Part shown: one piece after another, positions 1,921 to 61,561 of the stretch
How the letters are laid out: each line of letters opens with the position of its first letter
Numbering within the stretch: position 1 is the first letter of the stretch
Assembly (NCBI GenBank): GCA_964550035.1
Contig: CAZJVU010000004.1
Location: 7,820 to 71,819, forward strand
Direction: 5' to 3'
Source: an uncultured Candidatus Saccharibacteria bacterium
GTDB lineage: Bacteria > Patescibacteriota > Saccharimonadia > Saccharimonadales > EFPC-124
DNA length: 64,000 bases
The notes under the pieces: generated by a model
The model's input: only the letters and a program-made list of their open reading frames with translations
Databases searched by the model: none
What the model was told of the DNA's origin: nothing
Program-made: the position numbers and the translations under genes

Positions 1921-1960
1921 GCAAAACGCCCTGCCGCACACTCGCGACAGGGCGTTTTGC
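1921..1960 (-). terminator. GC hairpin downstream of the 1994..2248 gene
   Basis: GCAAAACGCCCTG/CAGGGCGTTTTGC 13-bp stem, 33 nt after the minus-strand stop. Confidence 0.5.
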
Positions 1961-1993
1961 CTTATTCAGCGAGGGCAGCAGGGTGGGTGAAGG

Positions 1994-2248
1994 TCAGACC
2001 GTCGCGGTCATCGCCGGCGCGGAGCCGACGAGCACGATGATTTCCCCTTCGCCGTCCGGGGGGATGACGTACGCCGAGGCGATGCTGGCGGCGCGCTTCC
2101 CCAGCTCACTCACGTGTCGCTGGAAGGCGCCGCGGGCCTCGTCTTCGGTGTCGTACGGGTCGGCGTGATTGTCCTGGAACGCCGAGCAGACGAGTGTCCA
2201 CTTCTCCGGATATGGATTGGCGTTCCTCTGGCTCCGGCTCACGGTCAT
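1994..2248 (-). CDS. Hypothetical small protein (84 aa), GC-rich island
   Basis: ORF with GGAAGGAG SD. Paralogous to 2358..2624 (EKWTLV..F..DP..EDEAR vs DKWVVV..F..DP..NEKAAR). Confidence 0.6.
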   Translation of the reverse strand: MTVSRSQRNANPYPEKWTLVCSAFQDNHADPYDTEDEARGAFQRHVSELGKRAASIASAYVIPPDGEGEIIVLVGSAPAMTATV

Positions 2249-2296
2249 GGCGGTGTTCTCCTTCCGGAAGGATGGTGAATCTATATAATACCATAA

Positions 2297-2338
2297 AAGC
2301 GATATGCCTGCCCACAGCCGCGGGCAGGCATATCGCTT
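2297..2338 (-). terminator. GC hairpin downstream of the 2358..2624 gene
   Basis: AAGCGATATGCCTGCCC/GGGCAGGCATATCGCTT 17-bp perfect stem. Confidence 0.5.
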
Positions 2339-2357
2339 GCGGGAGCGGTGGGGCAGG

Positions 2358-2624
2358 CTACCGGAATGTGACCACGTGCGGCTCTTTTTTCAGCGTGGTT
2401 ATCGGCGGGTAGGCGATGGCGTAGATGATCTTGAGCGTGCCCCGCTGCAGCCGCGACCGGGCGGTGTTGGCCGCATCCCTGGCTGCTTTTTCGTTGTCGT
2501 GCGGCTCGGGATCGCTCAGCGCGTAGCGGTCGCTGCGCGGACGGCCGGAATCGAAGGTGTTGTACACCACCACCCATTTGTCGAGGTAGGAGAGCGGACG
2601 GTCCGGCGGAATGAACTTCGCCAT
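2358..2624 (-). CDS. Hypothetical small protein (88 aa), paralog of 1994..2248
   Basis: ORF with AATGAGGAG SD and an upstream TTGACT-N16-TATTAT promoter. Confidence 0.6.
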   Translation of the reverse strand: MAKFIPPDRPLSYLDKWVVVYNTFDSGRPRSDRYALSDPEPHDNEKAARDAANTARSRLQRGTLKIIYAIAYPPITTLKKEPHVVTFR

Positions 2625-2708
2625 AGCTCCTCATTTCTGAGTCAGCAGTTCCAGTAGAGATATAATATCATTAATTGGTTATAAGTCAAACTACGAGTAG
2701 AGTAGAAG

Positions 2709-2975
2709 GTGATGAAAGCGATGTTATTTTACCGACCAAACTCCGAGCACGAACGCATGGTAGAAGAATACGTGCGCGATTTTGCACGCCACACCGGCAA
2801 AGAGTTGCCACTTGTGAACATGAACACCCCCGACGGCACCGACAAAGCGCAGCTGTATGGCATCATGAAGTTCCCGAGCATCGTGGCCGTCGACGACACC
2901 GGTCAAATGCTCCAGACTTGGGATGATGAACTCTTGCCGCGATTTGACGAAGTAAGTTTTTACGTCCAAGACTAA
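2709..2975 (+). CDS. Hypothetical small protein (about 85 aa); start ambiguous (GTG 2709, ATG 2712 or ATG 2721)
   Basis: ORF with backbone-like composition. No recognisable catalytic motif (no CxxC). Confidence 0.55.
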   Translation: MMKAMLFYRPNSEHERMVEEYVRDFARHTGKELPLVNMNTPDGTDKAQLYGIMKFPSIVAVDDTGQMLQTWDDELLPRFDEVSFYVQD

Positions 2976-2996
2976 ACAGGAACAGGATACATCCAT

Positions 2997-4155: not shown

Positions 4156-4629
4156 ATGCGGGCAATTAACCCAGACGTGCCGCGAGATATCTATCATTTG
4201 GCGCAAGGGTTTTACCTCGCAGGTAACCGCGCGGCACTTGATATTGAAGTTGGACCTAATTTAACGCAGTCACTTTTATCGCCCTCGGTAGTTAACTTTT
4301 GTTTCTCTATTGAACTCTTTTTTAAAGCATTGATTCAGAAGGACGGCACTAAGCCACTACGTAGCCATTTGTTACAAGAACTTTTTGAGAAACTCGACCA
4401 GCCTACTCGAGCAGAAATTAAGAAATCATTCGAGAATATCGTTCCGCATCCGGCCTTTGAGGAATTTCTTAAACAAATTAACGATTATTTTCAAAAAGTA
4501 AGGTATGAATATGACTACCCAGTAGAGATCTTTTACGAAGGACCGATCGCACAGTTTGCGCGAGTGGTCTATCTGCATTGTTCTAAAATTTTTAAGGAAG
4601 ATAGCCAAGCCCCTCCGGCTACTCTTTAA
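4156..4629 (+). CDS. Hypothetical protein (157 aa), AT-rich islet; possibly a HEPN-like helical fold
   Basis: ORF of visibly low GC. Helical repeats (FSIELFFKALI...H.LQELFEKL). No confident motif. Confidence 0.45.
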   Translation: MRAINPDVPRDIYHLAQGFYLAGNRAALDIEVGPNLTQSLLSPSVVNFCFSIELFFKALIQKDGTKPLRSHLLQELFEKLDQPTRAEIKKSFENIVPHPAFEEFLKQINDYFQKVRYEYDYPVEIFYEGPIAQFARVVYLHCSKIFKEDSQAPPATL

Positions 4630-4725: not shown

Positions 4726-5082
4726 ATGTCCTTCAAGGATGTCTTGGCCTGGCTGTTCGCCAGAAAGACCAAGTCGGGGAGTCGGTATCTGTATGGACCG
4801 GATCAGGAGCGACTGCGCAAGCGGCTGGAAGGCCGGTGGAGCAGCAAGTACCACGAGGAGGATGGGAAGATCCATCTCCTCATCGATCCGGACGGCAACC
4901 CCACGAAGACCTACCCGCACGTTCACGTCATCCACGACGAGCGGGCGAACCAGGTGCACTTCGTCGCGTCAACCGGCGAGAGGAGGCGTGTCTACAGTAG
5001 CACGCTCTCCGGAGACGTGAGCGGAAACGAGGTGAACGCCGAGATCGACAAGGCGCTCGCTGAGCTCCGACGACACCTGTGA
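4726..5082 (+). CDS. Hypothetical protein (118 aa), GC-rich island
   Basis: GAGAGGA SD 6 nt upstream. Followed directly by a 17-bp hairpin. Confidence 0.55.
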   Translation: MSFKDVLAWLFARKTKSGSRYLYGPDQERLRKRLEGRWSSKYHEEDGKIHLLIDPDGNPTKTYPHVHVIHDERANQVHFVASTGERRRVYSSTLSGDVSGNEVNAEIDKALAELRRHL

Positions 5083-5084
5083 TC

Positions 5085-5129
5085 GAATGGGCCGCCGCCA
5101 ATATGTTGGCGGTTGGCGGCGGCCCATTC
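5085..5129 (+). terminator. Long GC hairpin after 4726..5082
   Basis: GAATGGGCCGCCGCCAA/TTGGCGGCGGCCCATTC 17-bp perfect stem. No U tract. Confidence 0.6.
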
Positions 5130-5176
5130 GTGGATACTTGTGGTGGGTCGCAGGGTGATTCATAATTGAACGCAGC

Positions 5177-8706: not shown

Positions 8707-8754
8707 GCGTGTCTGGTGCGCCGCTCCCGGGGAGGGAGGGCGCACCAGACACGC
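8707..8754 (-). terminator. Hairpin between ileS and the 8757..9002 gene
   Basis: GCGTGTCTGGTGCGCC/GGCGCACCAGACACGC 16-bp stem. A T tract follows on the minus strand (AGTTTTTTATTT). Confidence 0.7.
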
Positions 8755-8756
8755 GT

Positions 8757-9002
8757 TCAGCTGAAGATGCCGGGGAAGATGGCGTACACCATCCCCGCCA
8801 GGCTACCAAGCCCGAGCACCCACCCGAGGAAGGTGAGGAGTTCGCGGGCTTCGCTCTTCCCGTTGGCACGCAACTTGTGCTCGATCACCAGCAGGATGAT
8901 GCCGAAGACCATGAGGCCGAGCGAGCCGAAGAACACCACCGTCGGGGACAGGTTCTCCAACATGCCGGGCTTGTCGGCGGTCGCCAAGACCAAGTTGGTC
9001 AT
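8757..9002 (-). CDS. Small 2-TM membrane protein (81 aa), GC-rich island
   Basis: AGAGAGGA SD. Paralog of 9049..9291 (MTNLVLATADKPGML vs MTTLLLADDKSGLL). Ends in FPGIFS. Confidence 0.65.
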   Translation of the reverse strand: MTNLVLATADKPGMLENLSPTVVFFGSLGLMVFGIILLVIEHKLRANGKSEARELLTFLGWVLGLGSLAGMVYAIFPGIFS

Positions 9003-9048
9003 GGGTGGATCCTCTCTGTGTGTGAAGTGGGCAGGCTGTGGAGGGGCC

Positions 9049-9291
9049 CTATTCGTCGAGAATGCTCGGGCCGAAGAAACCGGCAGCGATACCGACGACG
9101 CCGATGACGATCACCACCCAGCTGACCCACATCAGGACGTCGTGAGCGGTGTTCTCCTCGTTCATCTTGGCGGCGACCATCACGAGGATCACTCCCAAGA
9201 TCACCGCGATGAACCCGCCGACGACGAGCAGCCATGGCGGCGCCGTTTGCAGTAGGCCGGACTTGTCGTCGGCCAAGAGCAAAGTGGTCAT
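9049..9291 (-). CDS. Small 2-TM membrane protein (80 aa), paralog of 8757..9002
   Basis: GAAGGG SD. Two hydrophobic segments. Confidence 0.65.
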   Translation of the reverse strand: MTTLLLADDKSGLLQTAPPWLLVVGGFIAVILGVILVMVAAKMNEENTAHDVLMWVSWVVIVIGVVGIAAGFFGPSILDE

Positions 9292-9327
9292 GAGGCCAAA
9301 CCCTTCTATCCGAAGTTGGACTTGCTA

Positions 9328-9356
9328 ATTCTAGTATCTTTTTACGTGCTTGTCAA
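9328..9356 (-). promoter_or_regulatory. Sigma70-type promoter of the 9291..8757 cassette
   Basis: Minus strand TTGACA-N17-TAGAAT. Confidence 0.55.
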
Positions 9357-9378
9357 AATAAATAAGTTCAGTTTTTCT

Positions 9379-9412
9379 GAATGCTCCGGGCCGGGCAGGG
9401 CCCGGAGCATTC
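9379..9412 (-). terminator. GC hairpin after 9419..9718
   Basis: GAATGCTCCGGGCC/GGCCCGGAGCATTC 14-bp perfect stem. No U tract on the minus strand. Confidence 0.5.
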
Positions 9413-9418
9413 AAGTAG

Positions 9419-9718
9419 TCAGTCGTCGACGAGGGTCAGGTGGAAGCTCTGGAGCTTCGCCCGCGCGATGCCCAATGTCGCCGCGTTGTTTGGCGACATC
9501 ACGTTGAGCCTGACCACAGCTGCGACTTCGTAGGGCTTCATGCTGCCCTCGCCGTCGCCCCGCGTCATCGAACGGCCTTCGTCGTCGATGGAGACGACCT
9601 CGAGGTTGCGGTCCTCGAGGAACCGCTTGAAGACTGCCGGCGCGGTCGTTCGCCCCGTGGCCTTCACCGTGTGCTTCACCTTGATCGGCGGCGACTCGAT
9701 CAGTCGTTCTTCGGACAT
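9419..9718 (-). CDS. Hypothetical protein (99 aa), GC-rich island
   Basis: GAGGAAG SD. Soluble. No motif recognised. Confidence 0.55.
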   Translation of the reverse strand: MSEERLIESPPIKVKHTVKATGRTTAPAVFKRFLEDRNLEVVSIDDEGRSMTRGDGEGSMKPYEVAAVVRLNVMSPNNAATLGIARAKLQSFHLTLVDD

Positions 9719-9741
9719 GAAGCGCTCACTTCCTCGCGGTC

Positions 9742-10020
9742 TCAGACGACTCCGTGGGCGATGCGCATGACCAGGAGGATCGCGCAGATGCCCGCGGCGA
9801 TCGCGCTGATCGCTCGCGCGACCGCGGGAACCCGCTTGTTGCAGAGCACCAAGACGCCAACGATGACGACGACGCCGTCGGCCAGCGTGGCGAAGTGGTT
9901 GTCGGCTTCGTCGCTCGACAGAATCGAAGCGACCCGAATCCCTGCCTGTGTGAGTAGCAAGATGACTCCTTCTCCGTAGGGAAACAACTCATCTGGGAAT
10001 ATAGGGGATAGTGGGCTCAT
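9742..10020 (-). CDS. Small membrane protein, 2 predicted TM; start uncertain (ATG 10020, or TTG 9960 behind a GAAGGAG SD)
   Basis: Hydrophobic segments GVVVIVGVLVLC and AISAIAAGICAILLVM. Confidence 0.5.
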   Translation of the reverse strand: MSPLSPIFPDELFPYGEGVILLLTQAGIRVASILSSDEADNHFATLADGVVVIVGVLVLCNKRVPAVARAISAIAAGICAILLVMRIAHGVV

Positions 10021-10096
10021 TGTCAATAACACTATATTGACTTTTACGCACGAAGATGCTAATGTTAATTCATAACACCAATCAAAACAAAAAGTT

Positions 10097-21020: not shown

Positions 21021-21078
21021 AATTCTTGATTATTCTATCTGTTTTCTAGAGAAATGTCAAAGATAAGTTTAAGTGAGT

Positions 21079-21111
21079 GACCCCGGCTGCGCAGTTCACG
21101 CTGCCGGGGTC
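21079..21111 (-). terminator. GC hairpin after 21125..21388
   Basis: GACCCCGGC/GCCGGGGTC stem. Confidence 0.45.
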
Positions 21112-21124
21112 GACGCCGCCGAGG

Positions 21125-21388
21125 CTACTTGGCAGCGAAGAGCTGCCGCAGTTGCTCGCGGATGACGCCCCGAGTCTTCGGCTTGGGGTGCGCCCAGTCC
21201 GTCTCGCTGGAGACGCCGAGGATGTACATGCACTCGCAGACGAGGTCCTCGGGCGGCAGGTCTGCCTGTCCCACATTGGCGACGATGCGTCCCCTCAGGC
21301 GATCGGCATTCAGGTGGAGCCTCTCGCCCAGCATGGCGTCGCAGATGATCGTCGTCGCCTTGGCGATGAGATTCGGGGTGAGTTTCAT
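21125..21388 (-). CDS. Hypothetical protein (87 aa), GC-rich island
   Basis: ORF divergent from the peptidase gene. The two share an AT-rich promoter region at 21400-21480. Confidence 0.5.
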   Translation of the reverse strand: MKLTPNLIAKATTIICDAMLGERLHLNADRLRGRIVANVGQADLPPEDLVCECMYILGVSSETDWAHPKPKTRGVIREQLRQLFAAK

Positions 21389-21509
21389 GACATCACCTTT
21401 CCTGTTGACCCGACAGAAGCCCGATGGGACATCCTTTACTTTTTATACAATAATGGTAAAATATTCGCAAGGTTTTGGGCCTTACAACACGTATCCCAGA
21501 GGGGGTGTA

Positions 21510-22319
21510 GTGACACAACCGAGACGGCAAAGGCGCATCATCATCGTGGTGCAACCATCACCGCAACAGCCGGCCGGTACGCAGCCGCGGCCACGCCCGA
21601 AACGGCGTCGATCAAAGTCGAAAAGCAGTAAAAGCGGATCGATTGTCATGGTTGTCGTGCTTGCCTTGGCGCTTGCTTGGTTCACTCGCGGCAGCAAGGA
21701 GGAGGGCAGTACGCCACCTCCCGCAGCCAACCCGCCCGCAGGCGACTCGCGACAGCTGGCTAGTCAGGTTTTGGGCCTGAAGGACGACATCGTTCTGACG
21801 GCAGCGACCCGAGGCGCGCTCGATGCCTACGCCAAGGGCGGCAAGCCGACTAACTTCTGTGGCGATGTGCTCCCGGAGGTGGACCCGTTGCTCCTGCAGG
21901 TGCTTCTCAAGCTCCAGCGGGATGGGTACCGGGTGATGATCAACAACCTGGGCCTCGGTTCGGACCGCGAGCATGCGCTGTGCTACAACAAAGACGGCAG
22001 CCGCTCACACGATCAGCATACGCAGCTGCGCGCTGCTGACCTGAACGGCATCATCAAGAAGGGCGGATCGCAAACCAACTGGGGCGACATCGCATTTCGC
22101 CCTGGCGCAGAGATGCAGACCATCCAGGCTTACGCTGATGCGTGGCTGGATTTCTTGCCTCGGAACCGAGGTGGTGTAGGTCAAGAAGGCTGCCTCAATG
22201 GTGTCTATCCGCGCCCGGGTGGGTTTCATGTTCGCATCCCGCCTGGGTCGACGAACGCCAACCCCGCATCCTTCACGGACACGTGCGGCCATCTGCATCT
22301 CGATGTGCGTCAGCGCTAG
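21510..22319 (+). CDS. Membrane-anchored LAS-superfamily (M15-like) zinc peptidase, probably a peptidoglycan hydrolase
   Basis: GTG start behind AGAGGGGG. Basic N-terminus plus a TM segment (IVMVVVLALALAW). H-x6-D (HTQLRAAD) and a terminal HLHLD H-x-H motif. Confidence 0.55.
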   Translation: MTQPRRQRRIIIVVQPSPQQPAGTQPRPRPKRRRSKSKSSKSGSIVMVVVLALALAWFTRGSKEEGSTPPPAANPPAGDSRQLASQVLGLKDDIVLTAATRGALDAYAKGGKPTNFCGDVLPEVDPLLLQVLLKLQRDGYRVMINNLGLGSDREHALCYNKDGSRSHDQHTQLRAADLNGIIKKGGSQTNWGDIAFRPGAEMQTIQAYADAWLDFLPRNRGGVGQEGCLNGVYPRPGGFHVRIPPGSTNANPASFTDTCGHLHLDVRQR

Positions 22320-22348
22320 AGAGGTGAGGCCCCGGCCCTCAAACCTGG

Positions 22349-41388: not shown

Positions 41389-41406
41389 TTCTACTGTGTC
41401 TAGAAA

Positions 41407-41454: not shown

Positions 41455-41482
41455 TTGGAACGCGCTGGTCGACGGGCGCAGC

Positions 41483-41755: not shown

Positions 41756-41783
41756 GAGTACACCTCTCTGCTGTAGGGAGCGG

Positions 41784-42044
41784 TTATCGTTTACTCTTCT
41801 TTTGACCGCCCTTCAGGACGCCGATGACGGTAAGCGTGATGAACGCCACGCTGCCATAGATCACCCCCACGGCGATGAGCTTCGACCACTTGGTGGGGTC
41901 GAAGCCGACGCAGAGCAGGGTGACGAAGCCGCCCGCCGTGATGACGGCTGCCACCATGACAGCGACATCTTCGCGCCGAATGACACCAAATGCGAGTCCG
42001 CACAAGATGCCGGCGACCAAGGTCACCAGAAAGCTCGGGAACAT
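41784..42044 (-). CDS. Array gene 8: small 3-TM protein with a basic tail (86 aa from ATG 42044)
   Basis: AAGGA SD. TM1 VAGILCGLAFGVIRR. GFDPTKW turn. Tail KGGQKKSKR. Confidence 0.65.
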   Translation of the reverse strand: MFPSFLVTLVAGILCGLAFGVIRREDVAVMVAAVITAGGFVTLLCVGFDPTKWSKLIAVGVIYGSVAFITLTVIGVLKGGQKKSKR

Positions 42045-42130
42045 GGCTCGAGTATCCTTGTCTGTGAAGTCGGCGCGCGCTAAGACTGAAGCGCGATTCT
42101 GTTCTCGCACTGAGGCGAGAAGCTTATACA

Positions 42131-42159
42131 TTTATAGTATTAAATAATTGCTTTGTCAA
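42131..42159 (-). promoter_or_regulatory. Cassette D promoter
   Basis: Minus strand TTGACA-N17-TATAAA. Confidence 0.6.
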
Positions 42160-42179
42160 TGTTTTCTTGGTGTCTAAAA

Positions 42180-42224
42180 TGAGCGAAGCCCCGAGCGGGC
42201 CGGGTTTCCGGCCACACTCGGGGC
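42180..42224 (-). repeat. Cassette-boundary hairpin R5
   Basis: TGAGCGAAGCCCCGAGCGGGCCGGGTTTCCGGCCACACTCGGGGC. Confidence 0.85.
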
Positions 42225-42267
42225 TTGTTGCGCCGCACGACGGACGCGCTGTGGGTTGGTCGACTTC

Positions 42268-42552
42268 TCAGCGTGAGCGCTTCTTGGGCTTGAACTTCCG
42301 CTTCACGATGGCCGCGGTGACGAGCCAGGGGATCCCGGCTGCGATACCCAGTACTAGCGTGGCCACCCCGTCCCGGCCGTACAGGATTCCCATTCCGGCA
42401 GTGGCCACGGCGGTGAGAAACATGAGCCAGCCGAACATCTTGAAGAGCAGCGTGACCCGCGGGTGGGTGGCCAAAACGCCATACGCAGCACTGCCGAAGA
42501 CCGCGAGCAGCCAGAACCACCAGGGCACATTCGCAAACGTGAGCGTGATCAT
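42268..42552 (-). CDS. Array gene 9: small 3-TM protein with a polybasic tail (94 aa; alternative start ATG 42570)
   Basis: Tail VKRKFKPKKRSR. Only gene in cassette E. Confidence 0.65.
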   Translation of the reverse strand: MITLTFANVPWWFWLLAVFGSAAYGVLATHPRVTLLFKMFGWLMFLTAVATAGMGILYGRDGVATLVLGIAAGIPWLVTAAIVKRKFKPKKRSR

Positions 42553-42584
42553 CTCCCTTGTGCAGTACACGATAGTACTGCAAA

Positions 42585-42613
42585 ACTATAGGATGGAATC
42601 ACGTGTCTGTCAA
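42585..42613 (-). promoter_or_regulatory. Cassette E promoter
   Basis: Minus strand TTGACA-N17-TATAGT. Confidence 0.6.
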
Positions 42614-42645
42614 TAGTTCAACTCGTAGCGTGCTCTCTATAAAGC

Positions 42646-42683
42646 GGCGTCTGAGCGGGCCAGTGTGGCCGCGCCCAGACGCC
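42646..42683 (-). repeat. Cassette-boundary hairpin R6 (diverged copy with a compensated stem)
   Basis: GGCGTCTG-AGCGGGCC-agtgt-GGCCGCGC-CCAGACGCC. It retains GAGCGGGCC and the fold, but the outer stem has a different sequence. Confidence 0.7.
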
Positions 42684-42697
42684 GTACGGACGGTCGG

Positions 42698-42946
42698 TTA
42701 CTTCTTGTTCTTCTTGGTGATGTAGGCCCTCACGAAGCCCACGATCATCGCCGAAACGACGGTACTGATCAGGAGGGCCAGCCAGGCCGAATCATCCTTG
42801 TGCGCATCGTACCCGAGGCTGTACAGGGCGATGCCCGTGGCCACCGCAATGACAAAAGCGATGAGAATCGCAAGCGACACTTGCCGGAGGCCACCGATCA
42901 GGGCGCCGCATGCAGTACCGGCGACGATTGTTATGAAGTAGAACAT
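42698..42946 (-). CDS. Array gene 10: small 3-TM protein with a basic tail (82 aa from ATG 42946)
   Basis: GGGAG SD 5 nt upstream. TM1 VAGTACGALIGGLRQ. GYDAHKDD turn. Tail ITKKNKK. Confidence 0.65.
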   Translation of the reverse strand: MFYFITIVAGTACGALIGGLRQVSLAILIAFVIAVATGIALYSLGYDAHKDDSAWLALLISTVVSAMIVGFVRAYITKKNKK

Positions 42947-42980
42947 AAAAACTCCCAACACGGACGCTGAGGTCAATAGC

Positions 42981-43013
42981 TTTATATAAGTATAGATTTG
43001 TCTGTGTCGTCAA
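42981..43013 (-). promoter_or_regulatory. Cassette F promoter (weaker match)
   Basis: Minus strand TTGACG followed 18-19 nt later by TTATAT/TATATA. Confidence 0.4.
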
Positions 43014-43028
43014 GCGATATCCAGCGAA

Positions 43029-43076
43029 TGAGCGAAGCCCCGAGCGGGCCGAAGGGTATCCGGCCGCACTCGGGGC
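43029..43076 (-). repeat. Cassette-boundary hairpin R7
   Basis: TGAGCGAAGCCCCGAGCGGGCCGAAGGGTATCCGGCCGCACTCGGGGC. Confidence 0.85.
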
Positions 43077-43104
43077 TTGGGTCGGCGTGTCTGGTTGGAC
43101 TCAC

Positions 43105-43377
43105 CTAGTGCCGTTTTTTGGATCGACGACCGGGCTGGCTGCCACCCAGGCACCCGCATACACTGCCGCATGCGAACAGGGTGAAGACGGCGGCCCATTG
43201 CGCCAGACTGTACTCCAGTGCTTGCCCCCATACGCACATGACGATGGCGGCCGATACCAGCGCCAGCACTCCAGCCCGTGTGATGGCGATCTTCGTGCGG
43301 GAGAATCCTCTGAAGATGCAGAAGCCAGCTCCGGCGATGAGCAGGCTCGTGATGACGCCCGCAAGTTGTACGGACAC
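43105..43377 (-). CDS. Array gene 11: small 3-TM protein with a basic tail (90 aa, GTG start)
   Basis: AAGGAGG SD 3 nt before GTG 43377. Tail GRRSKKRH. The longer track ORF runs through gene 12 in another frame. Confidence 0.6.
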   Translation of the reverse strand: MSVQLAGVITSLLIAGAGFCIFRGFSRTKIAITRAGVLALVSAAIVMCVWGQALEYSLAQWAAVFTLFACGSVCGCLGGSQPGRRSKKRH

Positions 43378-43415
43378 GGCCCTCCTTGAGGCTCGGATGA
43401 AGCGTACGGCGCAGG

Positions 43416-43673
43416 CTACTTCTTGGCCTTGCGCTTCTTCTTGCTGTCCTTCGCGATGGTGACGATCGTCGTGACGACAGAGGTGCTGGCCAGGAAGGCC
43501 AGCCAGGGCAGAATGTCCTCGCGCGCGTCGTATTCGAGGCCAAACAGCACAAAGGACGTGATCAGCACGATGGCACCGTCGATGGCGAACGCGACGCGCA
43601 GTCGCTGGACGCCACCGAGCACGACGCCACACAGCACTCCTGAGAGGACGGTGACCAAGTAGTACACGAACAT
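43416..43673 (-). CDS. Array gene 12: small 3-TM protein with a polybasic tail (85 aa)
   Basis: AAAGGAG SD. TM1 LSGVLCGVVLGGVQR. EYDAREDILPW turn. Tail KDSKKKRKAKK. Confidence 0.7.
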   Translation of the reverse strand: MFVYYLVTVLSGVLCGVVLGGVQRLRVAFAIDGAIVLITSFVLFGLEYDAREDILPWLAFLASTSVVTTIVTIAKDSKKKRKAKK

Positions 43674-43710
43674 GACTGACTCCTTTAACGTGGATGTTCA
43701 GTTCATTGTC

Positions 43711-43739
43711 TTTATAGTATTTATTTATGAGTTTGTCAA
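43711..43739 (-). promoter_or_regulatory. Cassette G promoter
   Basis: Minus strand TTGACA-N17-TATAAA. Confidence 0.6.
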
Positions 43740-43753
43740 ATTATAAGCTCGTA

Positions 43754-43800
43754 TGAGCGAAGCCCCGAGCGGGCCGGAAAGTTCCGGCCACACTCGGGGC
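43754..43800 (-). repeat. Cassette-boundary hairpin R8
   Basis: TGAGCGAAGCCCCGAGCGGGCCGGAAAGTTCCGGCCACACTCGGGGC. Confidence 0.85.
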
Positions 43801-43832
43801 TGTATGGCGTTGGAGCTGCGACCCTGTAGGGT

Positions 43833-44087
43833 TTAGCGCCGGCGTTTGTCTTGCTTTTTGCGCATGACGGCGAGCACGACGATCGTGATCACCACGCTGC
43901 CCACTGCGCTGCCCAACCAGGCGAGCAGTACGTTGACATTCGAGGGTTCGAAGCCGGCGCCCACCAGAATGAACGCGGTGACGACGGTGATGCCGACTGC
44001 GATCGGCAGGTAAATGATCGCCCGCTGGAGCGCACCCAGCACAATGCCCGTCAGGATGCCTGCGACGATCACAATCAGAAAGAGCAT
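43833..44087 (-). CDS. Array gene 13: small 3-TM protein with a polybasic tail (84 aa from ATG 44087)
   Basis: GGAGGG SD. TM1 VAGILTGIVLGALQR. GFEPSNVN turn. Tail MRKKQDKRRR. Confidence 0.65.
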   Translation of the reverse strand: MLFLIVIVAGILTGIVLGALQRAIIYLPIAVGITVVTAFILVGAGFEPSNVNVLLAWLGSAVGSVVITIVVLAVMRKKQDKRRR

Positions 44088-44126
44088 GACTGTTTTCCCT
44101 CCAAGAGCGGTAACGAGTACGATATA

Positions 44127-44155
44127 GTTATAGTATATAGAGATGGCATCGTCAA
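44127..44155 (-). promoter_or_regulatory. Cassette H promoter
   Basis: Minus strand TTGACG-N17-TATAAC. Confidence 0.55.
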
Positions 44156-44238
44156 ATATTACTTTATGCTCGCGGAGTTGCGCGAGGGTTGTTATAATAA
44201 AAGGAGCCAAATCAGGGAAGAAAGGTGTAGCGAGTAGC

Positions 44239-47286: not shown

Positions 47287-47311
47287 ACATATAAGCTCAG
47301 ATAGGTGTGGC

Positions 47312-47342
47312 GGGCGTCGACGAATCATTCTCATCGACGCCC
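47312..47342 (-). terminator. GC hairpin after 47366..47671
   Basis: GGGCGTCGA/TCGACGCCC stem. Confidence 0.45.
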
Positions 47343-47365
47343 GGCCACGGCGTGTGGTCAGCGGT

Positions 47366-47671
47366 TCACAGGAACAGCGCCTGGTAGGTGATGTCGGTGC
47401 TCGGCACTCGCGATGGCGGTAGGGCATAGAACCGCAGGTCGGTGCAGTTGCCCTCGAGCACGCCGCTCATCACCGTCTTCAGCGCCGCCGGGTTGCGAAT
47501 CGGATAGCTCTGGCCGTTGCTGAACTGCGGCTTCGTCCAGCAGGCCACCACCGTGCGATCCGACCCGATCCCGCGGCGGAGAGTCGTGAACGCCCTGAGC
47601 GCGTCGGGGTCGTTCTCGGCGATCTTGCGTCGCAGGGCTTCGTCCGTCGTGAAGCGGTTGGTGATTTCCAT
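47366..47671 (-). CDS. Hypothetical protein (101 aa from ATG 47671), GC-rich island
   Basis: AGAGGA SD 5 nt upstream. TTGACT-N16-TATCCT promoter. Confidence 0.55.
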   Translation of the reverse strand: MEITNRFTTDEALRRKIAENDPDALRAFTTLRRGIGSDRTVVACWTKPQFSNGQSYPIRNPAALKTVMSGVLEGNCTDLRFYALPPSRVPSTDITYQALFL

Positions 47672-47813
47672 TTCCGTCCTCTGTTCGTCGCGGCTGACGG
47701 TACCGCATAAGGATATCACTATTCGGCCAAAAGTCAACCGTACTTACCTCTATAACATTACCCAACAAGTGGTATGATGGTACAAGAACACGTAATCTGG
47801 ATTTCTTTGTAAT

Positions 47814-51738: not shown

Positions 51739-52197
51739 CTATTTTGTAATCTGCTGGACTTGTTCTGCCAAGTCAGCGCCTTGTGGCTGAGTCGCGCCTA
51801 CGCCTGCGCCCGCGGCGCTTGGTGGAGGGGTCATTGTAACGGGTACGGCTCGTTGGGTCATCTCTGCTGTCGTCTGGACAGGATAGGGAAGCGGCGCTTC
51901 GGCAGATGGGGCAGGACCATGAATCGCGGCGAGCTCACGGCGTGCTCGGGCTTCGAGCTCACGCTGCTCAGTTTCTCCGGCAGCTTTGAGCGTTTGCTCT
52001 GCTTGGGCGATGGCGCCAGCGTCGGCACCTTCGGCAAGGAGCTTGTTCAATCGGATAAGTGCTTTCTTTGATTCGGGGTCCTCAGGTCGAATGCCAGCCT
52101 CAGGGGTGGGTTGCACCGGCTGCTGGACTTCTGGCTGCGTGGGCAGGCCGTTGACGTGACCTTCGGGGCCAAATTGATTTTTGTTTTCGGGCTGCAT
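51739..52197 (-). CDS. Pro/Gln/Ala-rich hypothetical protein (152 aa), probably on a leaderless mRNA
   Basis: No SD. TTGACA-N17-TAATGT ends 6 nt before the ATG. Confidence 0.5.
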   Translation of the reverse strand: MQPENKNQFGPEGHVNGLPTQPEVQQPVQPTPEAGIRPEDPESKKALIRLNKLLAEGADAGAIAQAEQTLKAAGETEQRELEARARRELAAIHGPAPSAEAPLPYPVQTTAEMTQRAVPVTMTPPPSAAGAGVGATQPQGADLAEQVQQITK

Positions 52198-52203
52198 AAC
52201 TAA

Positions 52204-52232
52204 ACATTAGCGCAATATTTACATTTTGTCAA
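52204..52232 (-). promoter_or_regulatory. Promoter positioned for a leaderless transcript of 51739..52197
   Basis: Minus strand TTGACA (52232-52227), 17-nt spacer, TAATGT (52209-52204), then 6 nt to the ATG at 52197. Confidence 0.5.
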
Positions 52233-52254
52233 CCTAGTTGAGTGGTAGAGCTTT

Positions 52255-52289
52255 GTCCCGCCCACACGGAGATTACCGTGGGGCGGGAC
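52255..52289 (-). terminator. GC hairpin after 52310..52741
   Basis: GTCCCGCCCACACGG/CCGTGGGGCGGGAC. Confidence 0.5.
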
Positions 52290-52309
52290 AGTCGGCAGCG
52301 CCTCTGATG

Positions 52310-52741
52310 TCATTTCGCGGTCGTGCGGCTCAGGACCTGAACCCAGTGGTGATACACATCCAGACAGGTCTTGATCAGTTCCTTCGACGGGATTGCGTTT
52401 TCGGGAATGATGGTTTCGTCTCCGATCGCTCTCGTCCAAGAGACCACAAGCCTAAGGTCTGGGGCGCGAGCGATAAGCTGGCACAGAGCTTCGTGCGAAC
52501 GGGGAATTCCGACGTGAGCTCTGAGCTCCCTTGCTGTCGCCGTTACCTTGTGCGCATTGACTCTCGAGCCGCCGAGGGCTTTATTGGAAGCCGCTTCCTC
52601 GAGCGCGGACATCGTAGCGGGTCGCTCCAGGTACGCCATGAACAACCGGAGAACACGCGCGTTGGCCGTGATCTCTCGAGGCAGTCGGAGCGGACCTTTA
52701 GCGAGGCGGTTGACTCTTTCGTAATCGCTTGAACCGGACAT
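52310..52741 (-). CDS. Hypothetical protein (143 aa), GC-rich island; possible LuxR/GerE-type HTH
   Basis: GCAGGAG SD. The segment SRVNAHKVTATARELRAHVGIPRSHEALCQLIARA resembles a GerE-type helix-turn-helix (weak). Confidence 0.45.
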   Translation of the reverse strand: MSGSSDYERVNRLAKGPLRLPREITANARVLRLFMAYLERPATMSALEEAASNKALGGSRVNAHKVTATARELRAHVGIPRSHEALCQLIARAPDLRLVVSWTRAIGDETIIPENAIPSKELIKTCLDVYHHWVQVLSRTTAK

Positions 52742-52816
52742 TACAACTCCTGCGGGTAGTCGACCGACGTATAGTAAAATATTAATTAGCTTTTGACAAG
52801 TGATATACTAGAGGTA

Positions 52817-59154: not shown

Positions 59155-59240
59155 CTCCAGCCTCCCCTTCGGGCAGCGCTCCCTGCAAGCCGTTGCCTTT
59201 CTTTCTTGGCCACGCATTGAAGCTGGCGATCTATGAATCT

Positions 59241-59268
59241 AAAAACTCCCGCGAAATCGGGAGTTTTT
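59241..59268. terminator. Bidirectional intrinsic terminator between the receiver gene and rpmA
   Basis: AAAAACTCCCG-cgaaat-CGGGAGTTTTT. Near twin of 1789-1814. Confidence 0.75.
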
Positions 59269-59288
59269 AGCTAGTAGGGCGAGAGGCC

Positions 59289-59609
59289 TTACTTCTTTGT
59301 GGCTGCAGCAACCGGCTTCTTTGCCGGTGCGGCTGGTTCGACAACCTGCACCTGAGTGCGAACGGCAGTTTTACCGGTAAAGCGCTTGATCTTTACCTTA
59401 GCAAAACTCACAACGCCAGCTTTGGCGGCGTGAATAGTGAAGTCGCGACCCATAAATGTGCCAGGACCTGCGATTTTTGTCTGACCTACCTGACGAACGA
59501 GGACTTCGCCTTCGTTCACCTTTTGGCCACCGAAACGCTTCACACCAAGGCGTTGGCCGGGTGAGTCATGTACGTTTTTGGCTGTACCGCCTGCTTTGAC
59601 GTGTGACAT
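59289..59609 (-). CDS. rpmA: 50S ribosomal protein L27 with an Ala/Lys/Pro-rich C-terminal extension
   Basis: MSHVKAGGTAKNVHDSPGQRLGVKRFGGQ. Confidence 0.9.
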   Translation of the reverse strand: MSHVKAGGTAKNVHDSPGQRLGVKRFGGQKVNEGEVLVRQVGQTKIAGPGTFMGRDFTIHAAKAGVVSFAKVKIKRFTGKTAVRTQVQVVEPAAPAKKPVAAATKK

Positions 59610-59617
59610 ATATTAGT

Positions 59618-60784
59618 TTACTCCTTGACTGTTATCACCAGTAGCTCGCGCGCAACGACCTGATCTTCACGGTGGTAGATCAGCTCAGTATTACTCGCGC
59701 GCTTAAAACTCATCCGATTATAGCCGATTTTCTCGAGGTCGTCAACAACTGGTAGGTGTTTAAATGTTCGACCGTCAAACCACGCCGGCACAGCAACGCA
59801 GCATCGAGTGCCCGGCTGGAGCTGTTTGTGGAGATTCGTGAAGAATGCTGCGGTGATATCGTTGCAGTCGCGAATGATTTTTTCGAGCTTGGTTTGCTCG
59901 GGTATGGCGGTCAACGGTTGACCCAGATATACCTCGCAAGCGACGCTGTCGATCGGCTGTTCCCAGGTGGCAGTGGTGGCATCTGCCGGGTTGAGCTGAG
60001 ACTCAAAGTCGATATGGTATGTGCTCTTGAGCCAGTTGAGATTGTAGCGCGTGTACTCTACCATGCGCTCGCTTATGTCGGTGCCGTAGACATGAGCGTT
60101 CATGAGCGCAGCTTCTTGGAGCACGACACCTGTGCCGCAGAACGGGTCGAGGACGTGGTCACCCGGCTTGATTTGCGCGAGATTGAGCATTGTCTGGGCG
60201 AGCTTAGGCGGGAGCATACCGACAAATGAATCGCGCTTTGGCCGGCCGAAATCGCGCTTGGCGTAGTCATCAATATCTTGCACGTACAGCGTGCGCGCGA
60301 GATGCGTTTGGCGTCCATCGCGTATGAGAAGTAGTTCGCAGCCGACCTCTGTCGTCAGGCGATTGTGAATAACCTGGGCGCTGTTGAGTTCGAGCCCTGT
60401 ATTGGGCACAACCCGGACGGAGCGGCCGGCGCTGCGCACGGTTTTTTTGAGCTCGAGGCTGGAGCGCTGAAGGGTTTTGAGGTTGATCGGAAGATCATAG
60501 ACGCTGAGGCCGAGTTTGATTTTGCCTTCAGGGAGTGTATCGAGGAGTTCGAGTAGCTTCTCGCCGGCCATCGAGATAATCGTGCTCCATTCGATCGTCT
60601 CGAAGGTAGCAAGCGGTGTTGCGAACTTCATGACGCTGCCGAGGAGCGGGAAGGGGATTGCATCTGCGCCGACATCAACCTGCGCTGCCACATCACCAAG
60701 TGGCGACAAACGTTCAGCGCCAAAGCGGCTTTCAAGTTCGGCCATGCCGAGCGCGGGCTGACGCCCCAGAATGCAAATAACCAT
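59618..60784 (-). CDS. Class I SAM-dependent methyltransferase (UPF0020/Trm11-like RNA or DNA methylase)
   Basis: VLDPFCGTGVVLQEA SAM motif. Start taken at ATG 60784 (MVICILGRQ). The longer track ORF is read-through across the MOSC island. Confidence 0.55.
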   Translation of the reverse strand: MVICILGRQPALGMAELESRFGAERLSPLGDVAAQVDVGADAIPFPLLGSVMKFATPLATFETIEWSTIISMAGEKLLELLDTLPEGKIKLGLSVYDLPINLKTLQRSSLELKKTVRSAGRSVRVVPNTGLELNSAQVIHNRLTTEVGCELLLIRDGRQTHLARTLYVQDIDDYAKRDFGRPKRDSFVGMLPPKLAQTMLNLAQIKPGDHVLDPFCGTGVVLQEAALMNAHVYGTDISERMVEYTRYNLNWLKSTYHIDFESQLNPADATTATWEQPIDSVACEVYLGQPLTAIPEQTKLEKIIRDCNDITAAFFTNLHKQLQPGTRCCVAVPAWFDGRTFKHLPVVDDLEKIGYNRMSFKRASNTELIYHREDQVVARELLVITVKE

Positions 60785-60826
60785 ACGTCTAAGTATACCG
60801 TTTTTGGAATAAGAGCATAGGGGGTT

Positions 60827-60855
60827 GGCCCGGCGCCCGAGTGGGGCGCCGGGCC
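60827..60855 (-). terminator. GC hairpin after the MOSC gene
   Basis: GGCCCGGCGCCC/GGGCGCCGGGCC 12-bp perfect stem, 6 nt after the stop. Confidence 0.5.
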
Positions 60856-60861
60856 GGTAGG

Positions 60862-61458
60862 TCAGTCGTCCAAGCCCGGCAGGTCGGGGACGATGGGCTC
60901 GCGCTTGACCTTGGCGCGGAACGAATCCAGGATGGTCATTCCGCCGGCCGGTCGCGATTCGAGCTCCAGCGCGCCGTGCGTCGGCACTTCGCCGGGCTCG
61001 AGCACACTGCAGTACCACCCGCAGCGGCCGTTCCCCATCATCGCCTTGGCGGTGCCCGGCCCACGAAGCATGTCGAGCTTGTAGCACGGCCGGCGGTGCC
61101 CAGTCACTTGCAGCAGGGCGTCACCCCACCGCCAGACCTCACCGATGCGCACGTCGGCCTCGAGCCTGTCATCCACCGTGACGTTCTCGCCGAACATGCC
61201 CGGACCGAGAGCTTCGTTGCGCTCGGCGCACCACATGGTGTAGTGCGCACTGGGGTAGAAGTACACGGCCTTGAGCGGGCCGCCGTGGATCTGTCGGTCG
61301 TCTTGCTCGTCACCTTCCAGGCCGAGCGGGCTGAGATAGAGCCAATCGAATATGACGGGCGTTTTGCGGATGCCCGAGCTGACGTCGTGACCCAGGCGGT
61401 TGCCGAGGGGCGCGACGCGGCCGACGTTGACGGACGCGATCGGCATCGTGACGGTCAT
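60862..61458 (-). CDS. MOSC-domain protein (198 aa), GC-rich island
   Basis: Size and pattern (..GLEGDEQDDRQIHGG..AVYFY..GENV.. and a conserved C-terminal Cys region PCYKL) recall the YiiM/MOSC family. Confidence 0.5.
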   Translation of the reverse strand: MTVTMPIASVNVGRVAPLGNRLGHDVSSGIRKTPVIFDWLYLSPLGLEGDEQDDRQIHGGPLKAVYFYPSAHYTMWCAERNEALGPGMFGENVTVDDRLEADVRIGEVWRWGDALLQVTGHRRPCYKLDMLRGPGTAKAMMGNGRCGWYCSVLEPGEVPTHGALELESRPAGGMTILDSFRAKVKREPIVPDLPGLDD

Positions 61459-61561
61459 GGTGCTACCTCCGTACGTAGGGGACTGAACCTTGAGTATTTA
61501 TAATATAAAAATGATTTTTTATCAACTAACGCTGAGATTAGACTGACGGAAACCGAAAGTC

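Follow-up and report, generated by a model that had tools for sequence, protein, structure and literature searches.

Bacteria of the candidate phyla radiation (CPR), Saccharibacteria included, have tiny, highly syntenic genomes in which the location of adaptive, fast-changing genes is poorly mapped. Where do such genes sit, and how do they turn over? We addressed this question in a 64,000-nt stretch (hereafter the window) of contig CAZJVU010000004.1 from an uncultured Candidatus Saccharibacteria bacterium. An earlier reading of the sequence alone (the original prediction) had listed 11 short, GC-richer islands among its housekeeping genes, and had ascribed them either to repeated acquisition from a high-GC donor or to a lineage-specific cassette-insertion mechanism. 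Our analysis suggests that the islands are probably, though by no means certainly, flexible-genome hot spots holding self-contained, fast-diversifying mini-operons that keep a GC-rich codon dialect. The window would offer a compact solution, in the form of insulated single-gene mini-operons at recurrent sites between essential genes.

Base composition and codon usage of the islands

All 11 listed islands proved GC-richer than the rest of the window, as predicted. Together they span 13,394 bp at a GC content of 0.614, whereas the other 50,606 bp have 0.534 and the whole window 0.551, and ten of them surpass at least 99.9% of equal-length non-island windows (z = 2.3–5.3); the five G+C counts per 60-nt line that had been made by hand were exact. 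Open reading frames (ORFs) were chosen by codon statistics, frame-specific GC included. They coincide with independent gene calls for all 13 genes of the array of island 8 and, by exact-sequence look-up, for 11 other island ORFs.

Mean GC at third codon positions (GC3) was 0.818 in 28 island genes (range 0.65–0.93) and 0.633 in 49 backbone genes (range 0.50–0.76; Mann–Whitney p = 2.7e-12), so that third-position GC does separate the two classes, as had been proposed. Separation is weak for the genes i10 (0.65), i4b (0.68), i6 (0.74), and i12 (0.75), named, like the others, after their islands. Codon choice also differs in kind, with CGG, CCC, GGG, and TCC favoured by the islands and CGT, CCA, and GGT by the backbone, and non-coding DNA has a GC content of only 0.51. 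The minus strand carries 23 of the 28 island genes versus 8 of the 49 backbone genes (Fisher p = 2e-8); counted per island, genes are antisense to both neighbours in only about half. The list of islands, sound in what it contained, was incomplete, because at least two island-like units (35969–36302 and 36860–37290) had been missed.

Promoters and hairpins of the island units

The strict promoter pattern TTGACN-N16-18-TANNNT occurs 15 times in the window against 3.0 expected. With promoter-like sites defined by a score of at least 10 (reached in 3.4% of random 130-nt windows), such sites sit 29–41 nt upstream of the start codon in 12 island units and 86 nt upstream in the unit of a5, whereas the promoters of i2, i7, and i4a/b are less distinct; the consensus promoter and Shine-Dalgarno (SD) sequence originally described for the islands thus hold for most units. 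Because backbone genes use the same promoter type, the island promoters are native-style, not island-specific. A sharp boundary runs inside the units, between an AT-rich promoter part and a GC-rich part comprising ORF and hairpin.

At their 3′ ends, all island transcription units bar that of a4 carry hairpins of 12–24 pairs with folding free energies (dG) of −28 to −48 kcal/mol; for backbone genes the strongest 3′ hairpin has a median of −14 kcal/mol. The value for the a4 unit, −19.8, comes from a 75-nt scan window that cut the hairpin, whose full copy spans 42180–42235, and the weak hairpins after i3d and i3b (−10.7 and −11.9) belong to internal genes rather than unit ends. A U tract is missing after most island hairpins; the few that have one are those of i3a and i1b and, beyond a 6-nt spacer, some of the array copies. 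In the backbone, the terminators at 1787, 30584, 47256, and 59239 have the A-tract/stem/T-tract form that had been described and that fits the canonical definition of an intrinsic terminator. What had been said of the long GC stems of the islands holds for their position, scarce U tracts, and strength, which even exceeds the original description, but not for their being unique in sequence, as the array repeats one hairpin seven times.

Terminators without U tracts are described in Actinobacteria. Like these, and like 3′ stabilizing stem-loops and repetitive extragenic palindromic (REP)-like elements, the island hairpins have long GC stems right after the stop codon, and their position and structure are kept in relatives, with compensatory substitutions at i1a, i3a, and i3c. 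They differ from that class in that the backbone of the same window uses canonical terminators and that the array hairpin keeps its sequence as well as its structure. No core motif common to the hairpins of different islands was found. The stem-loops may terminate or insulate transcription and protect the 3′ end of the transcript.

Turnover at recurrent sites in related genomes

A search with the ribosome recycling factor gene (24880–25434) returned 80 loci, nearly all labelled Saccharibacteria or Saccharimonadales and the closest at 83–89% identity, in agreement with the earlier view of a Saccharibacteria-like organism. Relatives are denoted here by locus numbers. Mean backbone protein identity to the window was 91% for L087, 89% for L084–86, 86% for L002/L003 (the same genome as L107), 82% for L004, and at most 67% for all other relatives; in a sister genome (L083, L089, and L090), backbone proteins were 82–95% identical to those of the window.

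The housekeeping backbone is syntenic between the window and its relatives, and the islands lie at recurrent hot spots. Nine spacers (L31|rpsB, tsf|frr, frr|uppS, greA|lysS, msrA|serS, FBP_C|hpf, secA|M16, MurL|prfB, and ileS|L21) differ in content or allele from relatives of 82–95% backbone identity, which is the behaviour of core-genome hot spots; further hot-spot spacers include nrdJ|CYTH and MTase|LPG-synthase (MTase, methyltransferase). Units specific to the window are i6, i12, i3b, an AT-rich gene at 4156–4629, i10 with x152, and most of the array. Several units are therefore true insertion polymorphisms, as the idea of acquisition by insertion implied, and the check on conserved position gives a divided answer, most islands having positional orthologues in near relatives and some units being confined to the window.

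Junction alignment with relatives resolved three clean insertions, those of i6 (frr|uppS), i12 (msrA|serS), and the array (FBP_C|hpf). All three fall between the upstream stop codon and the downstream −10 box (for i6, between the stop codon of frr and the −10 box of uppS), and the inserted unit consists of promoter, SD, ORF or ORFs, and GC hairpin. Island 6 (25441–26048, plus strand; promoter 25441–25469, hairpin 26004–26048) holds i6 (25507–25998), an orphan of 163 aa with GC3 0.74. The frr|uppS gap measures 662 bp in the window versus 25–53 bp in L002, L003, L004, and L084–87, which upholds the claim that islands split otherwise contiguous neighbours. Island 12 (36860–37290, plus strand), one of the two unlisted units, has an extended −10 element (TGGTATAGT, ∼36870–36878), the SD AGGAGG, the gene i12 (36918–37190; 90 aa, GC3 0.75), and a perfect 17-bp hairpin (37198–37236); it is missing in the sister L083, where the gap is ∼19–30 bp, and in L084. 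Neither i6 nor i12 has a homologue in any fetched locus, and each forms a singleton cluster.

Other islands are present in relatives and not in the window: one at prfB|ftsE and a 6-phosphogluconate dehydrogenase (6PGD) gene between the two CHAP-domain genes in L107 (12871–13800, GC3 0.88), and a gene after L21 in L089. Positional orthologues of island proteins are 31–78% identical overall (i2, 92%; i7, 63–77% across relatives) versus 82–95% for the flanks in the nearest relatives. The ratio of nonsynonymous to synonymous divergence (dN/dS, Nei–Gojobori) is 0.02–0.16 for backbone pairs and 0.13–0.86 for island pairs, with i2 at 0.08. Since gain, loss, duplication, and replacement all occur across relatives, we regard the islands as recurrent hot spots.

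Replacement is suggested by island 5 (24046–24833, minus strand; promoter ∼24806–24833, hairpin 24046–24100) at the tsf|frr hot spot. Its ORF, i5 (24111–24764, 217 aa), had been considered unassignable, but it carries a stand-alone Sa_NUDIX domain (Pfam PF18167, E = 6.8e-7, passing the cutoff). PADLOC matches are to the NUDIX part of 2TM effectors (TM, transmembrane) of the cyclic oligonucleotide-based antiphage signalling system (CBASS) and to a NUDIX protein associated with defence-associated reverse transcriptases (DRT). Homologues 30–44% identical in amino acids occupy the same position in L002 (two copies), L003, L004, and L084–87. Against L087, the flanks, hairpin, and promoter are 82–95% identical in nucleotides while the ORF core aligns without gaps at 50–55%, a mosaic that is the pattern expected, on sequence comparison, if alleles were replaced or diversified intensely inside a conserved frame; dN/dS for i5 is 0.76. 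The domain links i5 to CBASS and DRT effectors; unlike those, i5 stands alone, with no adjacent cyclase or reverse transcriptase, and its neighbours in the window and in all relatives are tsf and frr rather than a CBASS/SMODS operon.

In many bacteria the tsf–frr interval contains pyrH. In the window (23973–24880) and in the near relatives examined, the antisense Sa_NUDIX gene lies where pyrH often sits; pyrH itself was ruled out as the content of this interval, since codon statistics of the plus-strand ORF are non-coding-like and the minus-strand ORF matches Sa_NUDIX.

The closest known parallel is the core-genome hot spot, reportedly described by Oliveira and co-workers in 2017 in the context of the chromosomal organisation of horizontal gene transfer in bacteria. 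As there, gene content varies only in a small number of intervals, shared by related genomes and lying between conserved core genes; turnover through homologous recombination of the flanks is plausible, and the cargo is rich in orphans, membrane proteins, and conflict-type domains. The units here differ in being tiny (0.4–1.7 kb, usually one or two genes), in being GC-richer rather than AT-richer than the core, a difference that persists in orthologues, and in being complete from promoter to hairpin without integrases or tRNA sites. Nor do they look like classical genomic islands, as no tRNA or tmRNA gene was found in the 64-kb window, no integrase in the Pfam tables of the orthologous regions, and no convincing direct repeats at the i6 junction. 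In the best-supported description, hot spots of this kind are known, and what is unusual here is the persistent GC3 excess and an orphan array with an invariant hairpin.

The 13-gene array of island 8

Island 8 (39124–44157, minus strand) lies at FBP_C|hpf and holds 13 paralogous genes of 77–97 aa: a0 (43833–44087), a1 (43416–43673), a2 (43105–43377), a3 (42698–42946), a4 (42268–42552), a5 (41784–42044), a6 (41483–41755), a7 (41054–41320), a8 (40739–41029), a9 (40232–40504), a10 (39939–40202), a11 (39464–39757), and a12 (39191–39424). They are laid out as 8 promoter-led units, five of them bicistronic, with promoters of the form TTGACA-N17-TATAAx starting near 44128, 43712, 42990, 42585, 42132, 41361, 40615, and 39798. 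A 50-nt hairpin present in seven copies (39124–39179, 39856–39911, 40671–40726, 41407–41462, 42180–42235, 43029–43084, and 43754–43809) closes seven of the units, and a different hairpin (42645–42684) ends the remaining one. On the coding strand the palindrome reads AAGCCCCGAG-UGU-GGCCGG-loop-CCGGCC-CG-CUCGGGGCUU, followed by CGCUCA and often by UUUU. Across 12 copies from 3 genomes the stems are almost invariant and the loop is variable. The hairpin–promoter junction forms a repeat of ∼100 nt with 77–96% identity, long enough, it would seem, for RecA-dependent unequal crossing-over to expand and contract the array.

Gene number at this locus varies from 0 in L084 (FBP_C|hpf gap of 92 bp) through at least 2 in the sister L083 and 5 in L110, where promoter and hairpin are alike, to 13 in the window. 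Paralogues are 15–35% identical to the first member, and between genomes array proteins are 27–47% identical, with the exception of a11 at 78% (a12, 47%). The proteins are predicted to have three helices and a Lys/Arg-rich basic C-terminal tail (AlphaFold2 [AF2] model, mean predicted local distance difference test [pLDDT] score of 76), and on this model the array is an expandable family of putative small three-helix membrane proteins.

The family is confined to close kin. A profile searched against 5.8 billion proteins recovered only the window's own genes and one sister protein, and an exhaustive HMMER search of 1.84 billion representatives returned 19 proteins, 13 of them from the window; three of the other six (P0205, P0207, and P0209) belong to the 5-gene array at hpf|FBP_C in L110. 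So far, every array member that could be traced comes from this locus in a related genome. There was no match to a protein family or to PHROGs and no significant viral fold match in BFVD. A 20-mer of the array occurs nowhere else in the window, and its 14 matches in metagenome contigs were rejected as chance hits, all of them in high-GC contigs that lack the hairpin.

Acquired interbacterial defence (AID/rAID) clusters of Bacteroidales contain arrays of orphan immunity genes. The island 8 array resembles these in its fast-diverging tandem paralogues, small and multi-TM, set in a conserved non-coding framework with strain-variable copy number, and it resembles holins in the small size, several TM helices, and basic C-terminal tail of its proteins. 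It differs from both in having no neighbouring toxin, recombinase, endolysin, or phage gene, and the proteins cannot be classed as holins given the lack of endolysin or phage context and of a PHROG or significant BFVD match. With its invariant hairpin, the 13-gene array makes a testable locus for copy-number dynamics and function.

Donor searches and the persistence of high GC3

A high-GC actinobacterial or phage donor had been proposed for the islands. No donor was found: the closest homologues of TerC-vWA and of the array family occur only in related Saccharimonadales-type contigs, and neither donor-clade homologues nor amelioration, by which a high-GC import would be recognized, were seen. 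TerC-vWA, a fusion encoded in island 7, has full-length homologues that are 55–77% identical, after which the next best match is a generic TerC at 33%; the sole organism-named homologue is from Saccharimonadales (P0015), and three contigs that were read share the window's backbone. A separate TerC-vWA clade without an actinobacterial sister is thus already partly seen. Tblastn of the orphan ORFs against phage genomes, searches of IMG/VR with i4b and i5, and PHROGs gave no matches, with limited power for the small orphans. Tblastn against plasmids with TerC, MOSC, and the L107 6PGD gave 32–53% identity in mixed phyla, the 6PGD reaching ∼50%; the best plasmid TerC matches are actinobacterial, at ∼32% identity and close to alphaproteobacterial ones.

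The GC-rich codon usage of the islands shows no sign of decay. In four genomes TerC-vWA genes have GC3 values of 0.80–0.90, with a proportion of synonymous differences (pS) of 0.43–0.50 and dN/dS of 0.24–0.32; the saturation ceiling of pS, estimated from third-position frequencies, is ∼0.40–0.45 for islands and ∼0.6 for the backbone. In comparisons with sister orthologues, the small island genes likewise keep their high GC3 at about saturated synonymous differences. A simple two-state relaxation to the level of the backbone would have erased roughly half of any GC3 excess since the split of window and sister, and this is not seen. GC3 is lower in the window-unique units (i6, 0.74; i12, 0.75; and i10, 0.65, whose uniqueness rests on fewer relatives than that of i6 and i12) than in the shared, older ones (0.82–0.93). 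Unchanged GC3 at saturation and low GC3 in unique units together contradict recent import followed by amelioration.

The pattern extends to near relatives and stops there. Most accessory genes in L083, L084, L087, L088, L107, and L110 have GC3 of 0.79–0.96 versus 0.50–0.73 in their backbones. GC-rich gaps as a trait of the whole phylum were ruled out, since gaps are AT-richer than the core in 72% of 72 Saccharibacteria loci; the GC-rich pattern is limited to the window's near relatives. In L105 and L106, whose FtsE falls in the window's 90% identity cluster, backbone GC3 is 0.45–0.53 and accessory genes are alike, FBP_C is missing, and GC-rich islands are absent. This makes the GC shift, like the island dialect, a recent and lineage-specific trait.

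That accessory genes remain GC-richer than the core past synonymous saturation runs contrary to the usual rule of AT-rich islands. The dialect appears to be actively maintained, and two candidates for its maintenance are continuing exchange within a GC-rich gene pool shared by related Saccharimonadales and GC-biased gene conversion at loci prone to recombination, for which the GC3 excess provides a natural test case.

Weighing the explanations

In the reading that we prefer, a rigidly syntenic backbone would leave a limited set of spacers to host small accessory transcription units, each built from a native-type sigma-70 promoter and SD, one or two short genes, and a very stable GC stem-loop. 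The stem-loop would let units sit between essential genes, often antisense, without read-through. The cargo (small membrane proteins, a stand-alone Sa_NUDIX conflict-type domain, the TerC-vWA fusion, a MOSC protein, and orphans) appears lineage-restricted, its proteins evolving 3–10 times faster than those of the backbone; in an epibiont, the conflict-type domains and the small orphan membrane proteins could plausibly act in interactions with host or phage. Turnover proceeds by insertion and deletion of whole units, by tandem duplication (i1a/b, i3a/b, the Sa_NUDIX pair of L002, and arrays of 5–13 genes), and perhaps by replacement of the ORF core in a conserved promoter/hairpin frame, as the Sa_NUDIX locus suggests, although diversifying selection in situ may give the same profile. 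The agent may be homologous recombination on conserved flanks and on repeated hairpin–promoter junctions, which natural competence would help. Natural competence, with uptake of linear constructs into neutral sites, is documented for several Saccharibacteria (bioRxiv 10.1101/2024.11.25.624915), and most gene transfers detected in Patescibacteria run between Patescibacteria (PMC12455944). The GC-rich codon style would then be a maintained property of a gene class in this sub-lineage, not the decaying mark of a recent donor.

Several points weigh against this reading. Island 10 (52250–52745) is compositionally ordinary (z = 1.7, within the top 2% of same-length windows), and i2 is conserved (92% amino acid identity to the sister L089, dN/dS 0.08) yet has a GC3 of 0.82. 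Fast-evolving backbone genes keep ordinary GC3: PrmC (49–56% identity), CPBP (66–81%), and the methyltransferase all lie at ∼0.61–0.66. The donor searches with small orphan ORFs, which found nothing outside the lineage, had limited sensitivity. The reading also draws on a putative termination by hairpins without U tracts in this phylum, on recombination and transformation as a presumed mechanism, and on GC-biased gene conversion as a candidate maintaining force.

The import initially envisaged, in which single genes would have come repeatedly and fairly recently from a high-GC actinobacterial host or its phages, with ORF and terminator donor-derived and promoter and SD domesticated later, now seems unlikely. 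It would account for the C- and G-ending island codons (CGG, CCC, GGG) that resemble those of high-GC genomes, for long, GC-rich hairpins mostly without U tracts, for a GC-rich segment that spans ORF and hairpin but not the AT-rich promoter, and for the units that are true insertions; the actinobacterial top matches of plasmid TerC point the same way, except that their identity is as low as that of the alphaproteobacterial ones. Against it, neither TerC-vWA, with its drop from 55% to 33%, nor the array family has a close homologue outside Saccharibacteria, no phage or IMG/VR match appeared, most islands have positional orthologues in relatives, GC3 does not ameliorate at about saturated sites, the units unique to the window are the least GC3-rich, and the L107 6PGD, with its GC3 of 0.88, is equally without a close donor, being ∼50% identical to proteins of diverse phyla. 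A history without any transfer, in which mutation bias or GC-biased gene conversion would set a GC-rich equilibrium at synonymous sites, toward which old, weakly constrained, non-essential resident genes drift while codon selection holds backbone GC3 lower, is decidedly unlikely. Conserved position in near relatives, high dN/dS, and stable GC3 across relatives agree with it, as do island codon preferences that parallel those of the backbone but are more extreme for most amino acids, and a sub-lineage that is as a whole GC-richer than most Saccharibacteria. It is at odds with presence/absence and replacement polymorphisms at the same sites, with TerC-vWA occupying different hot spots in different genomes, with non-coding GC of just 0.51, and with the strongly constrained yet GC3-rich i2; and because fast backbone genes such as PrmC, CPBP, and the methyltransferase have normal GC3, relaxed constraint alone fails to explain the dialect.

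A dedicated, integron-like system, whose enzyme would read folded hairpins and insert units between a stop codon and the next promoter, is highly improbable, although parts of the architecture invite the comparison. The units are modular, of similar build, short, and mostly single-ORF, like integron cassettes, and the three resolved insertions fall exactly between stop codon and downstream −10 box. The array consists of same-oriented modules in varying number (0, 5, or 13 genes), each framed by an imperfect palindrome (two stems, variable loop) whose sequence hardly changes across copies and genomes while the genes diverge to 27–47% identity. The lineage-specific cassette mechanism of the original prediction nevertheless found no support: neither the scanned window genes nor the Pfam tables for the relatives' orthologous regions, which together span most of the window, contain a domain of an integrase, transposase, or other recombinase; tRNA genes are lacking; the islands' hairpins share no core motif; and the array 20-mer recurs only by chance. 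No IntI or attI was seen, the array being flanked by FBP_C/serS and hpf/secA, and the array palindrome (AAGCCCCGAG..CTCGGGGCTT) has no GTTRRRY core and hence not the R″/R′ pair (RYYYAAC/GTTRRRY) of attC. Unlike cassettes, the units carry their own promoters and are scattered singly except in the array, orthologous hairpins change in a compensatory manner like structural terminators, and the i6 junction has no clear target-site duplication. It is also very doubtful that GC3-rich promoter–ORF–hairpin micro-cassettes are shuffled as mobile entities among strains and hot spots, with the hairpins, especially those of the array, as recombination or recognition sites and GC-biased repair maintaining their signature.

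Content of the individual islands

Island 1 (1919–2689, minus strand; promoter 2662–2689) holds two paralogues, i1b (2358–2624, 88 aa; 17-bp stem hairpin at 2297–2339) and i1a (1994–2248, 84 aa; hairpin 1919–1962), with GC3 of 0.84 and 0.87. Their orthologues in the sister L089, at the same place, are 51% (i1a) and 54% (i1b) identical versus 92–95% for the flanks (dN/dS 0.45–0.53). Island 2 (4726–5130, plus strand) comprises i2 (4726–5082, 118 aa), which matched no family in profile scans, and a 19-bp hairpin (5084–5130, dG −39.7). Adjoining it is a conventional AT-rich insertion (4156–4629, plus strand; GC 0.42, GC3 0.39) that was not among the islands originally listed. Its gene has a weak HEPN-like match (Pfam E = 2.4e-4, slightly under the cutoff) and is missing in L089, where the i2 orthologue comes straight after VKOR.

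Island 3 (8707–10032, minus strand) consists of two bicistronic units whose hairpins have dG values of −32 and −47 kcal/mol. The first has a promoter at 9998–10026, i3d (∼9742–9957), i3c (9419–9718), and a hairpin at 9377–9414; the second has a promoter at 9328–9356, the two-TM paralogues i3b (9049–9291) and i3a (8757–9002), and a hairpin (8707–8754) common to the convergent ileS. GC3 is 0.86–0.93. Sister orthologues are 47–58% identical (i3a, 47%; i3c and i3d, 57% each), with dN/dS of 0.62–0.72; i3b is missing in the sister and is therefore taken as a tandem duplicate.

At the L31|rpsB hot spot, island 4 (21072–22388) has genes on both strands that diverge from an AT-rich spacer: i4a (21125–21388, minus strand; hairpin 21072–21120) and i4b (∼21453–22319, plus strand; hairpin 22346–22388), which encodes a single-TM protein. 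Both frames are backed by the frame-specific GC plot. Homologues lie at the same locus in L087 (i4a 44%, i4b 65%) and L084–86 (i4b 58%); the locus is almost empty in L002 (219 bp) and has other content elsewhere. An M15-like peptidase had been suspected here, but the label could not be reproduced beyond an H..D/HxH-like motif seen by eye: i4b has no sequence match in Pfam, NCBIfam, PHROG, or PDB even at E = 1, and its single-sequence AF2 model (pLDDT 39) is too low for use. In L084, the public annotation has a 202-aa gene on the minus strand (1007–1615), overlapping the plus-strand homologue of i4b annotated in the near-identical L085 (943–1704) and L086; the 202-aa call is probably a wrong-strand call in GC-rich DNA.

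Island 7 (30742–32395, plus strand; hairpin 32342–32395) at greA|lysS encodes the 532-aa fusion of TerC and a TerF-like vWA domain. The TerC label given earlier stands, with a Pfam score above the curated threshold (PF03741, E = 8e-33, 114 bits vs cutoff 27.8) and an NCBIfam TerC/Alx score just below the subfamily cutoff (E = 1e-68, 232 bits vs 246); the vWA-TerF-like domain has a Pfam E-value of 2.7e-4. The gene lies at greA|lysS in the window and L084–87, at L31|rpsB in L006, and in L088 within a Ter-type cluster downstream of L31, the contig stopping short of rpsB. That cluster (L088 2651–13696) comprises two PRTase_3 genes, a HAD hydrolase gene, a vWA-TerF-like gene, and a second TerC/DUF475 gene, most with GC3 of 0.79–0.96. 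Island 7 shares TerC and the TerF-like vWA domain with Ter clusters, as the L088 copy does in its PRTase_3/HAD/vWA-TerF setting, but in the window the gene stands alone, with no other Ter gene adjacent.

The other unlisted unit (35969–36302, plus strand) contains x92 (35969–36247, 92 aa) and a hairpin at 36255–36302 (dG −41.5). Its GC3 is 0.74 (0.82 in the sister), and it is 70% identical to the sister protein versus 91–94% for its neighbours (dN/dS 0.29); L084 has a different 88-aa gene with GC3 of 0.85 in its place. Island 9 (47307–47737, minus strand; promoter 47710–47737, hairpin 47307–47348 with dG −33) at secA|M16 peptidase holds i9 (∼47366–47671, 101 aa, GC3 0.83–0.88), whose positional homologues in L107 and L108 are 46–57% identical versus 94% for M16; L105 has a different, plus-strand gene there.

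Island 10 (51739–52799, minus strand; promoter ∼52771–52799, hairpin 52250–52296) at MurL|prfB carries i10 (52310–52741, 143 aa, GC3 0.65), in which a possible helix-turn-helix had been seen; no such family matched. It also includes x152 (51739–52197, minus strand; GC at first codon positions 0.76, GC3 0.54), whose low-complexity product has much Pro, Ala, and Gln and matches no family. No fetched locus contains a homologue of either gene. In L107 this gap is occupied by AraC, glyoxalase, and a 118-aa gene, in L108 by the 118-aa gene alone, and in L105 it is empty. Island 11 (60827–61525, minus strand; promoter ∼61497–61525, 12-bp all-GC hairpin 60827–60855) encodes i11 (60862–61458, 198 aa), a MOSC-domain protein, as annotated before, with a score above the curated threshold (PF03473, E = 5e-28, 98 bits vs cutoff 22.7). 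It also matches NCBIfam 6-hydroxyaminopurine reductase-like proteins, under the equivalog cutoff (E = 2e-35). The L107 orthologue at the same position is 58% identical versus 72–83% for the flanks, with GC3 of 0.86 and 0.82 for the pair and dN/dS of 0.37.

Backbone order and further observations

From Pfam tables of the relatives' orthologous regions and direct scans, the backbone runs nrdJ, CYTH, VKOR, ileS, L21, parA, parB, lepB, LCP, htrA, prmC, trmH, prfA, L31, rpsB, tsf, frr, uppS, rseP, CPBP, proS, greA, lysS, DUF2207, msrA, serS, FBP_C, hpf, secA, M16 peptidase, murD, murL, prfB, ftsE, ftsX, two CHAP genes, ctpA, a response regulator, L27, a methyltransferase, an LPG-synthase-like gene, xseA, and xseB. 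In an Rfam scan of the window no family reached its gathering score. Two bidirectional backbone terminators 57 kb apart (1787–1816 and 59239–59270) have identical 13-bp stems, CTAAAAACTCCCG/CGGGAGTTTTTAG, and different loops.

The lysS site also varies among relatives. After TerC, the window (32494–34014) and L087 (11750–13270) encode a class II lysyl-tRNA synthetase (tRNA-synt_2), whereas L084–86 encode a class I enzyme (tRNA-synt_1f; 11776–13299 in L084), though their backbones are ∼89–91% identical; a class II lysS match is likewise missing at this site in L002–L004. In this class I/II swap, an essential gene at a hot spot has been displaced by a non-orthologous one.

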